Source: Patescibacteria group bacterium
GTDB taxonomy: Bacteria; Patescibacteriota; Patescibacteriia; SBBC01; CAIJZX01
Direction: 5' to 3'
DNA length: 50,248 bases
Assembly (NCBI GenBank): GCA_038065275.1
Contig: JBBTRH010000009.1
Coordinates: forward strand, 1-50,248
Shown here one piece after another: positions 4,676-17,444 of the stretch. The notes below the pieces were generated by a model. The model did no database searches. It worked only from the letters and a program-made list of their open reading frames with translations, and was not told where the DNA came from. The translations under genes were made by a program, and so were the position numbers. Every line of letters starts with the position of its first letter. Within the stretch, counting starts at the first letter, position 1.

Positions 4676-4747
4676 GCGCACCTAGCTCAATGGTAGAGCT
4701 CTCGTCTTATACACGAGTGGTTCCAGGTTCGAGTCCTGGGGTGCGCA
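4676..4747 (+). tRNA. tRNA-Ile (anticodon TAT)
   Basis: Hand-folded cloverleaf: gcgcacc/ggtgcgc acceptor, gctc-aatggta-gagc D arm, ctcgt-cTTATac-acgag anticodon arm, ccagg-ttcgagt-cctgg T arm. No encoded CCA. Flanked by a 9-bp complementary leader/trailer (ggctcttag / ctaagagcc). Confidence 0.85.
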
Positions 4748-4756
4748 CTAAGAGCC

Positions 4757-14037: not shown

Positions 14038-14215
14038 GGGCTGTTAGCCCCGATGTCCGGCGAAGCCGGAATCGGGATCCCGACCCGACATTCTGATGGA
14101 GGCGTCGGGACTCCCGCCTTCGTCCCGACCGCACAAGTGCGTCGGGACTACGGCGGGCAGGCTCGCCCGCCAAAGACTTGTTCGGCGGCAGACAGTTGGT
14201 AGAGCGTCCGGTTTG
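14038..14215 (+). pseudogene. tRNA-Ala(TGC) 5' half with two hairpin inserts in the D arm, broken after TTTG
   Basis: gggctgt ta gc[63-nt cccgat...gtcgggac, 14049-14111]tc[ccgcc...ggcaggc plus a second hairpin, 14114-~14193]agttggta gagc g tccgg tttg | tcccgatt... Confidence 0.7.
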
Positions 14216-14230
14216 TCCCGATTCCTAGAA

Positions 14231-14476
14231 ATGTTTTTCCTCTACATTCTACAGTCGAAAACAGACGGATCATATTACATAGGTTCTTGTGAAAATATTA
14301 CAACGAGGTTACTGTTGCATAATCAGGGAAAGGTGCGATCGACAAAACGCGGATCACCCTGGATGCTGGTATATCAAGAAAGTTTCACCACACGATCAGA
14401 GGCATATGCAAGAGAACAACAAATAAAATCATGGAAAAAGAGAGCGGCCATCGAAAAACTCATTAAACATTTCTAG
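14231..14476 (+). CDS. GIY-YIG nuclease domain protein (81 aa)
   Basis: MFFLYILQSKTDGSYYIGSCENITTRLLLHNQGKVRSTKRG...WMLVYQESFTTRSEAYAREQQIKSWKKRAAIEKL has the GIY...YIG, R and E motifs of small stand-alone GIY-YIG proteins. It is AT-rich compared with its flanks and is bracketed by the 16-bp inverted repeat attcctagaaatgttt / aaacatttctaggaat. Confidence 0.85.
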   Translation: MFFLYILQSKTDGSYYIGSCENITTRLLLHNQGKVRSTKRGSPWMLVYQESFTTRSEAYAREQQIKSWKKRAAIEKLIKHF

Positions 14477-14717: not shown

Positions 14718-14721
14718 AAAC

Positions 14722-15071
14722 TGGTGCTGGGTTTTTGCCGAAAACCTGCAACTCGCTACTTAACCCCGCACTATGCCTCGTTACACTCGGCAAATGCGGG
14801 GCAAGGAGGCAGTATCCGTCGCTCACCTGGTGACCCGAGGAGGACTCGAACCTCCAACCCGCTGCTTAAGAGGCAGCTACTCTACCAATTGAGCTATCGG
14901 GCCAGGTGAGCGACGGATTAGATGATCGTCAGCTGCTCCTTGCCCCGCACCGGAGTGGAACTACTGGTGCGGGGTACCAATTGAGTCCCGACGCCTCCAT
15001 CGCGATGTCGGGTCGGGATCCCGATTCCCGAAGTTCGCCGAGCGAATTCGGGACATCGGGGCTAGCGGGCC
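14722..15071 (-). pseudogene. Disrupted outer tRNA-Lys-like gene enclosing the intact tRNA-Lys
   Basis: Minus strand: ggcccgc ta gc[76-nt insert 14985-15060]tc aattggta [ccccgcacc...ggtgcggggcaag 14939-14974] gagc a gctg(a) ... intact tRNA cassette ... (g)cctc[cttgccccgc...gcgggg]ttaag tagcg agtt gcagg ... No proper T arm or 3' acceptor. Confidence 0.55.
14828..14903 (-). tRNA. tRNA-Lys (anticodon CTT)
   Basis: ggcccga ta gctc-aattggta-gagt a gctgc-ctCTTaa-gcagc gggtt ggagg-ttcgagt-cctcc tcgggtc ACCA. Bracketed by 12-bp complementary flanks (14816-14827 / 14905-14916). Confidence 0.9.
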
Positions 15072-15114
15072 GAAGGAGAGTAATAAATTATCGCAAAACG
15101 TGGCAAAAAGCAAG

Positions 15115-15215
15115 CCCCGTTAGAGGCGGTTGAGATTTTGTTTTTGAAAATCTCACCAACCGAGTTGATTAACCAGCTCGTTCCGTAGACTATAGTTCTT
15201 CCGCCTCTAACGGGG
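15115..15215. mobile_element. MITE-like element, CCCCGTTAGAGGCG family, copy c (101 bp, TSD CAAG)
   Basis: ccccgttagaggcgg (15115-15129) pairs with ccgcctctaacgggg (15201-15215). CAAG is present on both flanks. Confidence 0.8.
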
Positions 15216-15259
15216 CAAGCACTCGTAGAAAAATACAATCGTATCTTTCTTTGGCGGCA

Positions 15260-15775
15260 TTATTCGCCCAATAATTCGGATATAACTTGTTCTTTACGGT
15301 ATACCGCACTCTTTTGTTCAACGCTTTCGCCGGCTTTCTCTTTCAATTGTTCCATTTCTACATCAGTAGTGATACCGGAATATTTCTGAAAGAGTGTTCC
15401 CGCATCACGAGCGGAGAGATTAACATCGCCATCAACCGAACCTTCGTAGGTATAAGGGCCCTGATATTCGTAATCCCGATCGAAGTTTAGCGTAACTCTC
15501 GCGAGTTTATTAATGACTACTCTATGACCCTTAACCCTTCCGATGATTGTCTCAGCTGGGTACATATCTTCTTTCAGCTTACCATTATCGTCATACCACC
15601 AAGCGGGAGGCCCATTCTTTATCCATTTTAGGGATCCGTCCTTACCCAGCTCAATGAAACGCTCTTCGCGTTTATTTGAAGCTTCCTTTTCTTTCCATGT
15701 CATCCGTTCACCTGCTTTTTCCATATCCTTAATTTCCTTCTCTGACAACGGGCTTGTTTCTGGTGAATGAGGCAT
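15260..15775 (-). CDS. Hypothetical protein (171 aa), AT-richer patch
   Basis: The only long ORF in a visibly lower-GC segment. No recognisable motif. Confidence 0.5.
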   Translation of the reverse strand: MPHSPETSPLSEKEIKDMEKAGERMTWKEKEASNKREERFIELGKDGSLKWIKNGPPAWWYDDNGKLKEDMYPAETIIGRVKGHRVVINKLARVTLNFDRDYEYQGPYTYEGSVDGDVNLSARDAGTLFQKYSGITTDVEMEQLKEKAGESVEQKSAVYRKEQVISELLGE

Positions 15776-15963
15776 ATAGTTGGAGATTAATTAAAGAAAA
15801 ATTTTCTTTTACCAAAATGTGGTTCGGGCCGATGGATTCGGCGTGGCTCACCACAGGTATTTTTCTCCGGCTTGCCCCGCACCCATGTGGTGCGGGGGTT
15901 CCTTGGCGGTCCTTCGGCAGGCTCAGGACAAGTTTTTGAACGATCGCGGCGGAATCGCCGGCC

Positions 15964-16221
15964 CTACCCCAAAAGAGCAATCTCTTTTTCAGAAACTACG
16001 CCCTTATCGATAAGTACTTGAGCGAGCCTGTCTTGACGGCTCTTGAGGATGGTCAATTCTTGGTGCCATGCCTCGGTGAACTTTAAGTAGCGATCAACAG
16101 AAGATTGGAGGTCAGAGAACTTATCCGTTACCCGTTCCTCAATGGCCATCACATCTTTCTTTGTCGCAAAAACCCGCTTTTGAGCTTCAACGAGTTTTAC
16201 GATATCCTGGTCGGTCAACAT
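15964..16221 (-). CDS. Hypothetical coiled-coil protein (85 aa)
   Basis: Charged, heptad-like sequence in the lower-GC patch. Confidence 0.45.
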   Translation of the reverse strand: MLTDQDIVKLVEAQKRVFATKKDVMAIEERVTDKFSDLQSSVDRYLKFTEAWHQELTILKSRQDRLAQVLIDKGVVSEKEIALLG

Positions 16222-16284
16222 ATTGGCAGACTAGGTTAATAATCATGCCCTGTCAATAGGTTTCGTAAGTGTAGCAGGGCTCGA

Positions 16285-16362
16285 ATGGTTCGACAAGCTC
16301 ACCGCGTCGCCTGCAACCCGCTGCTTAAGAGGCAGCTGCTCTACCAATTGAGCTATCGGGCC
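16285..16362 (-). pseudogene. tRNA-Lys(CTT)-like gene with an insertion in the T loop and no 3' acceptor strand
   Basis: ggcccga ta gctc aattggta gagc a gctgc ctCTTaa gcagc gggtt gcagg [cgacgcggtgagcttgtcgaacca]ttcgagc cctgc, followed by non-complementary sequence. Confidence 0.6.
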
Positions 16363-16365
16363 TTA

Positions 16366-16404
16366 GTGCCTGGGATCAGAATCGAACTGATGACGCCAGC
16401 CTCT
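16366..16404 (-). pseudogene. tRNA-Phe 3' remnant (anticodon stem 3' strand to acceptor)
   Basis: Plus strand gtgcctgggatcagaatcgaactgatgacgccagcctct matches the 3' part of the intact tRNA-Phe, then diverges in the anticodon loop. Confidence 0.7.
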
Positions 16405-16530
16405 TTTTACCCAGCACCGGACCTCGAGCTTGCCGAGAGGGATTGGTGCTGTGGCAGGGCGGGATTCATCCCGCCCAATTCCCTGGTGCCTGGAGTCAGA
16501 ACCCCGCACCAGCCGTGTTCATCTCGCCGG

Positions 16531-16602
16531 TGCCTGGGATCAGAATCGAACTGATGACGCCAGCCTCTTCAGGGCTGCGCTCTACCACTGAGCTACCCAG
16601 GC
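16531..16602 (-). tRNA. tRNA-Phe (anticodon GAA)
   Basis: gcctggg ta gctc-agtggta-gagc g cagcc-ctGAAga-ggctg gcgtc atcag-ttcgatt-ctgat cccaggc A. The acceptor helix is extended by the flanking ccggt/accgg. Confidence 0.9.
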
Positions 16603-16659
16603 ACCGGGAAGACGAACCTATTATCGTGTATTGTAAAGCAGTAAATAATTAACTCTCAA

Positions 16660-16790
16660 ACGGCTGGTACGGGGCAAGTCGAACCGCTAGTTTACCCCGA
16701 GCCGTGTCGAGGGGCCAGCCTCTTTCCGGCGAAGCCGGATCCGGCCATCTGGCCGGACAGGGCTGCGCTCTACCACTGAGCTACCCAGGC
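16660..16790 (-). pseudogene. tRNA-Phe copy with a 33-nt hairpin between G34 and A35 and a degenerate 3' part
   Basis: gcctggg ta gctc agtggta gagc g cagcc ctg[tccggccagatggccggatccggcttcgccgga, 16725-16757]aaga ggctg, followed by hairpin repeats where the T arm should be. Confidence 0.65.
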
Positions 16791-16812: not shown

Positions 16813-16938
16813 GACTCTACCACTGCCAGCCCGCCGTAGCGTCAGTGACGGCGGGAGTCCCGACGCCTCCATTGGAATGTCGGGTCGGGATCCCGATTCC
16901 CGATCGCTAGGCGCATCGGGAATCGGGGCTACCCAGGC
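16813..16938 (-). pseudogene. tRNA-Phe 5' fragment with two D-arm hairpin inserts
   Basis: gcctggg ta gc[71-nt cccgatt...gtcgggac, 16857-16927]tc[ccgccgtcactgacgctacggcgggctggc]agtggta gagt... The insert positions match those in the Ala fragment at 14038. Confidence 0.65.
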
Positions 16939-17042: not shown

Positions 17043-17384
17043 TTACATCGCTGGAGTCACCGGCGCGCTGGGCGCAGTCGGAGTTGCCGGAGTTGCCGGC
17101 GCACCGCTCATTTTCAAAGCGTCTTTTAATGATTTACCAGCCTTGAATTTCGGCACGGTCACGGCCGGGATTTGGATTTTCTCGCCCGGTTTCTGGGGGT
17201 TGACGCCCATCCGCGCTTCGCGCCGCTTGGCCATAAACGTTCCGAAACCGGTCAGGGTCACTTCACTGCCCTCCTTGAGAGTGGAGGTGACGACTTCTTC
17301 AAAGGCGTTCAGCATGTCTTCCGCCTGTTTCTTGGTGACGCCGATTTTTTCGGCGACTTTTTCCGCTAATTCGACTTTGTTCAT
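17043..17384 (-). CDS. hup: HU-family DNA-binding protein with a Pro/Ala/Thr-rich C-terminal tail
   Basis: MNKVELAEKVAEKIGVTKKQAEDMLNAFEEVVTSTLKEGSEVTLTGFGTFMAKRREARMGVNPQKPGEKIQIPA is a canonical HU/IHF fold sequence. Confidence 0.92.
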   Translation of the reverse strand: MNKVELAEKVAEKIGVTKKQAEDMLNAFEEVVTSTLKEGSEVTLTGFGTFMAKRREARMGVNPQKPGEKIQIPAVTVPKFKAGKSLKDALKMSGAPATPATPTAPSAPVTPAM

Positions 17385-17444
17385 TCCTCTCACCTCCCTT
17401 CGTATTTCACGATCCGCCTCAGGCGGAGTCGATCGAGTAAATTA

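Follow-up and report, generated by a model that had tools for sequence, protein, structure and literature searches.

The tRNA-Lys(CTT) locus analysed here is layered, with its innermost gene alone still working, and we believe, with slightly more confidence than doubt, that this gene is a hairpin-bounded spare which replaced an invaded resident copy. The locus lies in a window of 50,248 nucleotides, i.e. the whole stretch of DNA that was analysed, which is contig C9 of the genome of an uncultured bacterium (hereafter G000; 1.09 Mb in 33 contigs, with an estimated completeness of 100%). The genome has bacterial markers (FtsH, IF-2, RNase Y and a bacterial RNase P RNA), encodes RNase III alongside the RNase P RNA, and has order-level relatives that bear the label Candidatus Kerfeldbacteria (CPR/Patescibacteria). 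We compared it with several of these relatives. G002 and G003 belong to the same genus as G000, G008 belongs to another genus than G002, and G017, G019 and G020 are from another family than G000. ARAGORN calls a set of 46 tRNA genes in G000, where Lys(CTT) is represented once. One of the other calls is a tRNA-Ile with anticodon TAT (4676-4748), an isoacceptor that is uncommon in bacteria.

The inner gene lies on the minus strand at 14828-14903, encodes its CCA and is the only Lys(CTT) gene found by ARAGORN in the whole genome. That it is intact, as the initial annotation proposed, is confirmed by the ARAGORN call, Lys(ctt), and by a score of 69.3 bits against the Rfam family RF00005 (gathering score 29), which places it among the tRNAs. 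The gene is surrounded by an inverted repeat (14814-14830 and 14902-14918), in which 17 nt are 100% complementary. The 12-bp perfect repeat described at first is thus real and in fact longer. Fourteen of these base pairs fall outside the tRNA and make up a leader/trailer helix with ends of the form TCCG...CGGA. The leader arm, atccgtcgctcacc (14905-14918, minus strand), is separated from G1 of the tRNA by one unpaired t (14904), and the trailer arm, ggtgagcgacggat (14814-14827, minus strand), comes directly after CCA.

Both arms were identified by an inverted-repeat search and by covariation across five genomes (G000, G006, G017, G019 and G020). The 14 pairs are 95.7% paired across these genomes, 8 of the 14 have changed on both sides and none has changed on one side only. 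As controls, slid alignments gave 24-39% pairing and none of 500 shuffles reached the observed score. Leader/trailer helices of such strength accompany 17 of the 46 tRNAs of G000, against 1.2% when trailers are shuffled. Because of the covariation, the shuffled and slid controls and this genome-wide excess, we conclude that the complementarity of the arms is maintained. This covarying structure is a candidate processing signal, and it plausibly acts at the RNA level, where RNase III and RNase P would process the precursor. Perfect arms could alternatively be kept by correction of one arm from the other at the DNA level. We discarded the argument that the missing G·U pairs of the Lys helix reveal a DNA-only constraint: it does not generalise, as 20 of 235 helix pairs genome-wide are G·T. 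Frequent helix ends in G000 are TCCCGC...GCGGGA and TCCG...CGGA, and by reading we found the same kind of ends on the small hairpin inserts described below and on the hairpin around the GIY-YIG gene of a neighbouring tRNA-Ala nest.

The parse of the locus and its alignment with G017, G019 and G020 delimit a cassette of ~117 nt (14813-14929, minus strand), made of a 12-nt spacer, a helix arm, the tRNA, the other helix arm and ta. The cassette interrupts an outer gene between position ~30 and positions 28-31 (gagcagCTG / cassette / CTGcctc). The proposed nesting inside an older tRNA-Lys stands, with a change of site: the cassette occupies the 5' strand of the anticodon stem, not the anticodon loop. 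It is flanked by a short duplication of 3-6 nt (CTG in G000, CAG or CAGCTG-like in the relatives). It goes back to one ancestral event and could be due to chance.

The pieces of the outer gene are all on the minus strand. Its 5' end consists of the 5' strand of the acceptor stem, positions 8-9 and the start of the D stem (ggcccgctagc, 15061-15071). The D stem is then interrupted by insert 1 (14986-15060), two tandem GC-rich hairpins of the tcccga..tcggga family, the second of which has copies at 16855-16931, 14058-14113 and 37842-37888, as well as in relatives. A piece of D stem and D loop follows (ctcaattggta, 14975-14985), which is an 11-nt exact match to the inner tRNA-Lys, and after it comes insert 2 (14939-14974), made of a hairpin ccccgcacc..ggtgcgggg (14974-14943) and caag. 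A homologous hairpin sits at the same site in G019, with a compensatory change in the stem, and a second copy is found within the tRNA-Thr(ggt) nest of contig C6. The 3' strand of the D stem, position 26 and the start of the anticodon stem (gagcagctg, 14930-14938) bring this part of the gene to the cassette. An acceptor and D arm carrying two hairpin inserts had been placed at 15071-14929, and this is where we retrieved both the pieces and the hairpins.

On the other side of the cassette, the outer gene resumes with the 5' strand of its anticodon stem and the loop up to C34 (ctgcctc, 14806-14812). Insert 4 (14764-14805), which is cttg followed by a hairpin ccccgca..tgcgggg, separates C34 from U35. 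The reported split of the outer anticodon loop (ctc|ttaa) is thus correct, with the break at C34|U35, and a hairpin occupies the identical site in G017, G019 and G020. The rest of the anticodon loop, the 3' strand of the stem, the variable region and the 5' strand of the T stem are contained in ttaagtagcgagttgcagg (14745-14763). Recognisable tRNA stops after this piece, at 14745; the T loop, the 3' strand of the T stem and the 3' acceptor strand are gone. Beyond it, at the joint with inverted tRNA-Ala debris, lie a small A/T hairpin, ggttttcggcaaaaacc, and an orphan half-arm (together 14721-14744, minus strand). The half-arm, cccagcaccag (14721-14731, minus strand), has no partner.

When the four inserts are removed and the outer pieces joined, they match the uninterrupted tRNA-Lys of G010 at 52 of the first 55 positions, with an alignment z of 22.6 against shuffles, and both the D stem and the anticodon stem are intact. 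Judged by this alignment, the outer pieces are those of an older tRNA-Lys, and the shell present in G000 represents three quarters of one gene. The presence of an older gene outside the inner one is further borne out by equivalent shells in the three genomes of the other family. The initial annotation had expected the insert-free shell to score as a tRNA and had named failure to do so as grounds for refutation. Formally this is what happened in G000, for which ARAGORN gives no call under either default or relaxed settings, because the T loop, the 3' T stem and the 3' acceptor strand are missing. The comparison across relatives suggested at the same time had the opposite outcome: the insert-free shell is called tRNA-Lys in G017 by ARAGORN at default settings, and in G019 at relaxed settings. 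In the unedited G000 locus, a search with Rfam detects the inner gene alone, even at E <= 10.

A second bracket had been described further out. Its arms are real (14795-14808 and 14936-14949, 14 nt, 100% complementary) and show no conservation in relatives: hairpin 2 is absent from G017 and G020, and the cross-pairing is imperfect in G019. We have rejected it as a conserved structure. Its arms come from two adjacent hairpins that belong to one family, and what is conserved instead is the local folding of each hairpin. By reading, we noted a promoter-like TTGCTT-15 nt-GATAAT (15087-15113, minus strand) upstream of the outer gene. It is a candidate promoter at most, for which a strict promoter scan gave no call. 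The flank upstream of the shell is conserved in G006.

The same composite is found in G017, G019 and G020, i.e. the 5' pieces of the shell with hairpins, the cassette at the same place, the hairpin at 34|35 and the 3' pieces of the shell. In G017 and G019 the shell still has its T arm and CCA end. The hairpins of the D arm vary from lineage to lineage, both in kind and in position, and are therefore later additions. A different arrangement is seen in G013, where the inner tRNA-Lys is flanked by a 5' part and by a 3' part which is split at the D arm. In that genome (L013 1470-1590) the inner gene does not encode CCA, its acceptor stem runs straight into a 12-bp leader/trailer helix, and a 3' part with CCA comes next. 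Clean single tRNA-Lys genes are present in G002, G010 and G015. We also observed that G006, G007 and G011 share a tRNA-Lys copy (L009 1600-1800, L010 1200-1480 and L006 1590-1760) whose D loop contains a conserved double hairpin of ~90 nt. In G007 this copy occurs as a tandem repeat, of which ARAGORN calls one unit a tRNA.

A third tRNA-Lys copy lies outside the composite, at 16277-16362 on the minus strand. A defective copy had been announced at 16285-16362, and Rfam indeed gives 36.5 bits to 16277-16362, which exceeds the threshold (29). Its nucleotides 1-53 are the same as those of the intact tRNA-Lys of G010. A 24-nt insert lies where the T loop begins, no 3' acceptor strand remains, and ARAGORN makes no call even when the insert is taken out. 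The copy starts 3 nt after the 3' half of a tRNA-Phe, much as Lys starts 1 nt after Phe in G010, which indicates a decayed resident gene. A Phe-adjacent Lys gene is intact in G002, G003, G008, G010 and G011, and by this synteny the G000 copy is its dead ortholog. In G010 and G011 the two genes belong to a cluster, Leu-Val-Ala-Phe-Lys, that lies on one strand and has an HU gene after it on the other strand, and G007 has kept the same five tRNAs. Compared with these loci (L005, L006 and L010), the Phe-to-Lys block of this ancestral cluster (window 14722-16790 in G000) is inverted between tRNA-Ala and HU (17043-17393).

Two ORFs between the defective copy and the composite have no match in Pfam, NCBIfam or PHROG. 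One of them (15964-16221, minus strand; P0001, 85 aa) belongs to a patchy multi-copy family with no family match, present in 11 of 41 relatives, which adjoins GIY-YIG genes in G003 (C62) and G020 (C132). We abandoned it as a marker of the composite, since the family is patchy and multi-copy and its linkage inconsistent. Between ORF171 and the Lys composite, at 15114-15216, is a MITE whose 16-bp terminal repeat, GCCCCGTTAGAGGCGG, is perfect and which has CAAG on either side.

The alleles of Lys(CTT) conflict with the taxonomy. For example, the gene of G002 is 100% identical to that of G008 and only 88% identical to that of its congener G000. The genes of G003 and G011 are also 100% identical, and the gene of G012 is 76-77% identical to those of its congeners. 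In several genomes, the live and the dead allele belong to different classes. The inner gene of G000 is 96% identical to the resident-type allele, compared with 88-92% for the inner genes of the other family. Import of the entire composite would therefore not be enough by itself and would need gene conversion in addition. We searched for empty sites in metagenomes with the promoter-like flank as query and obtained five chance matches, none with a tRNA. A scan of a genome collection with the trailer motif of the other family returned three genomes that were already known and three unrelated matches that lack a tRNA and are probably due to chance. Since these searches gave no pair of empty and filled sites, we infer the insertion of the cassette from its anatomy.

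The Lys locus is one case of a pattern that is seen across the genome. Fragments of the same tRNA adjoin 20 of the 46 tRNA genes of G000, and they show a strong polarity relative to the intact gene. The 5' fragments are found 15 times upstream and once downstream, the 3' fragments never upstream and 21 times downstream (Fisher p = 1.7e-9), and the breakpoints cluster at nt 33-36. The outer flank of the fragment is unrelated to the flank of the live gene in 18 of 22 cases, from which it follows that simple tandem duplication does not account for most nests. Within 600 bp of tRNAs, hairpins with the motifs CCCGCC, CCCGCA and CCCGAC show a 5- to 7.5-fold enrichment, and each motif has 36-102 copies. 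Generic GC-rich hairpins were dropped as a tRNA-linked class because their enrichment near tRNAs is merely 2-fold. As for the features expected of MITEs, the small hairpins have terminal inverted repeats and these copy numbers, and we saw no target-site duplication. Four weak matches to PF01797 (IS200/IS605-type Y1 transposase; best 1e-8) were considered as possible mobilisers (C2:3248-3568, C12:73259, C6:14952 and C16:1428). They were set aside, since CCCGCC and CCCGCA hairpins were not seen in the flanks that we inspected.

Small GIY-YIG genes follow the same distribution. G000 has 13 GIY-YIG matches, of which 12 are small, and 9 of these small genes have a tRNA at a distance of less than 400 bp. 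The ORF at 14096-14476, which neighbours the Lys composite, matches PF01541 (3e-16). Others are found 24-374 bp from tRNAs on contigs C1, C5, C6, C11, C12, C13, C20 and C27, where their neighbours are Val-cac, Gln-ttg, Met, Pro-cgg, Arg-tct, Tyr, Ser-gct and Glu-ttc. For the G000 genome as a whole, GIY-YIG genes thus lie next to potential tRNA targets, as expected of SegB-like nucleases. Within the Lys composite itself we found no nuclease or recombinase gene, the nearest GIY-YIG gene being that of the neighbouring tRNA-Ala nest. The relatives have 2-11 GIY-YIG matches each, one of which, in G008, is 76 bp downstream of Lys(CTT).

We propose the following scenario for these observations. In this lineage, palindromic elements would break tRNA genes at their loops time and again, and the small GIY-YIG nucleases associated with tRNAs would probably be involved. 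A hairpin-bounded spare copy of the same tRNA would then take over. The old copy would be left as a neutral shell that more hairpins may colonise afterwards. At the Lys locus, the inner gene is now probably transcribed from the region upstream of the shell, and RNase III probably frees its tRNA by cleavage at the helix, before maturation by RNase P. We infer from the arrangement of the pieces that a spare would have replaced a broken resident, and that the shell may persist by neutrality. A more specific version, which we put forward tentatively and with less than even confidence, is that in Kerfeldbacteria-like CPR the tRNA genes are cargo of hairpin-bounded mobile cassettes that home, with GIY-YIG nucleases, into the resident copy. 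In this version, a selfish element would spare its host by supplying a complete copy of the gene that it destroys, with no need for splicing (as in introns and inteins) or for rebuilding the target (as in integrative elements).

The main rival is break-induced segmental duplication, in which breaks within a gene, made for instance by a SegB-like GIY-YIG nuclease, are repaired with a tandem duplication that has one end inside the gene. Two such events would give the nested look, hairpins would later colonise the redundant pieces, and a mobile tRNA cassette would be unnecessary. This process clearly operates at some loci. A nested tRNA-Phe in G003 (L007 1600-1870, minus strand), whose inner and outer genes share 13 nt of leader and ~10 nt of trailer, looks like one of its products, and fragments share a trailer with the live gene at Leu(gag) (two fragments), Arg(tcg) and perhaps Tyr. 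Duplications with one end inside the gene would also account automatically for the polarity of 5' fragments upstream and 3' fragments downstream, and in phages SegB drives the segmental amplification of tRNA genes (PMC13096335). The unrelated flanks in 18 of the 22 cases argue against it, however, and so does the Lys locus itself. There, the inner leader has no significant similarity to the upstream flank of the shell in five genomes (own-genome p = 0.13-0.82), and the cassette owns a perfect helix that is absent from the flanks of the shell. In G017 and G020 the inner leader seemed by eye to be a copy of this flank, which would have implied tandem duplication, an impression that shuffle tests did not support (p = 0.13-0.8). 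Overall we regard segmental duplication as somewhat unlikely.

If the shell and its hairpins were kept as a structured leader and trailer that protect or regulate the inner pre-tRNA, one would understand why the composite folds as a rod with the tRNA at its tip (-178 kcal/mol, z = -7.7) and why the architecture of the shell is common to different families. One would not understand the variation of the D-arm hairpins between lineages, the lack of conservation of the second bracket, the loss in G000 of the whole 3' quarter of the shell that G017 and G019 keep, or the clean single genes of G002, G010 and G015, and we find such a functional scaffold quite improbable. We are still more doubtful that the fragments are scars of tyrosine-recombinase elements that entered the anticodon loop, rebuilt the tRNA (attL), displaced its 3' part (attR) and were later deleted. 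Many 3' fragments do begin at nt 34-36 and lie downstream, and the anticodon loop was reportedly described by Williams in 2002 as a sublocation of integration in tRNA genes. This reading leaves unexplained the 15 upstream 5' fragments and a complete inner gene with its own flanks. Moreover, the spacers are just 17-300 bp and hold no integrase, and the Lys cassette is in the anticodon stem and not at the crossover of the loop. No ORF was found between the pieces of the Lys composite, and its 5' part is upstream, in contrast to what an attL/attR element leaves. We give very little credit to the idea that the inserts are true introns, archaeal-type or self-splicing, and the shell a second functional tRNA-Lys. 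The inserts do fall in the D, anticodon and T loops, which resembles the multi-intron tRNAs of archaea, and 34|35 is also the site of the group I intron of cyanobacterial tRNA-Leu(UAA). Splicing is nevertheless unlikely, because EndA and RtcB were not found (0 matches to PF01974 and PF01139 in G000, whose completeness is estimated at 100%, with positive control genomes), because no Rfam intron family matches at the gathering threshold or at E <= 10, and because the shell has no T loop or 3' end. The inserts are also short, at 32-75 nt. A group I intron at 34|35 was rejected, as the insert there has 42 nt, when the ribozyme core alone has at least 200 nt, and no Rfam intron family was detected.

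Replacement of an invaded gene by a spare, if it is true, has several consequences. Mobile DNA in an essential gene has two established strategies, to be spliced out or to rebuild its target, and a full spare inside a hairpin would be a third. Replacement would provide a function for the small GIY-YIG proteins that abound in CPR genomes, explain the conflict between tRNA alleles and genome phylogeny in these bacteria, and provide a bacterial counterpart to the long-debated origin of archaeal disrupted tRNA genes. At a practical level, nested loci can mislead tRNA annotation, since one of the dead copies described here exceeds the Rfam threshold. A genome-wide way of breaking and replacing tRNA genes has apparently not been described so far: we found in the literature no description of bacterial nested tRNA genes with hairpin cassettes. 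Several known systems share part of its features.

Palindromes of the MITE and REP types (Correia/NEMIS, REPINs) are short and GC-rich and occur in tens to ~100 copies, nested and tandem copies included. The hairpins of G000 are likewise short, GC-rich and multi-copy. In contrast to these elements, they strongly prefer the loops and surroundings of tRNAs, the small ones show no target-site duplication, and some carry a tRNA or a GIY-YIG gene in their loop. The intervening sequences of bacterial rRNA are extended helices in loops, some with a small ORF, that are removed by RNase III. They resemble the present case in that extended helices are inserted into the loops of a stable-RNA gene, and RNase III is encoded in G000. 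The difference is that rRNA tolerates fragmentation, whereas a tRNA does not tolerate a cut in the anticodon loop; hence, an invaded tRNA gene would be lost and a spare needed.

Integrated elements also leave fragments of tRNA genes (PMC9897764). As in G000, a tRNA gene is targeted, a working gene is preserved and a displaced old fragment lies nearby (attL/attR). The spare described here is a complete gene with its own hairpin flanks, and not a 3' part fused to the 5' part of the host. Furthermore, its 5' fragments stay upstream, and neither an integrase nor a kilobase-sized element separates the pieces. In phages T4 and T6, SegB is a free-standing GIY-YIG homing endonuclease of tRNA gene clusters, through which whole tRNA genes undergo co-conversion or segmental amplification (PMC2330249; PMC13096335). 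The small GIY-YIG genes that tightly adjoin tRNA genes in G000 are reminiscent of this system. Here, however, they are found in a cellular CPR genome, the copies are nested instead of simply tandem, the modules are bounded by hairpins, the Lys composite has no nuclease gene inside, and the GIY-YIG proteins of G000 are putative nucleases. The last comparison is with the disrupted tRNA genes of archaea, which include multiple non-canonical introns and split genes and for which a model of disruption by mobile elements was proposed in Caldiarchaeum (PMC3293823; PMC4390854). Both cases have short structured inserts at several positions and fragments beside a working gene, and a mobile element is invoked in both. 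The locus described here differs in that it belongs to a bacterium with no splicing endonuclease or RtcB, in which the working gene is a separate, intact one and the invaded copy is dead.
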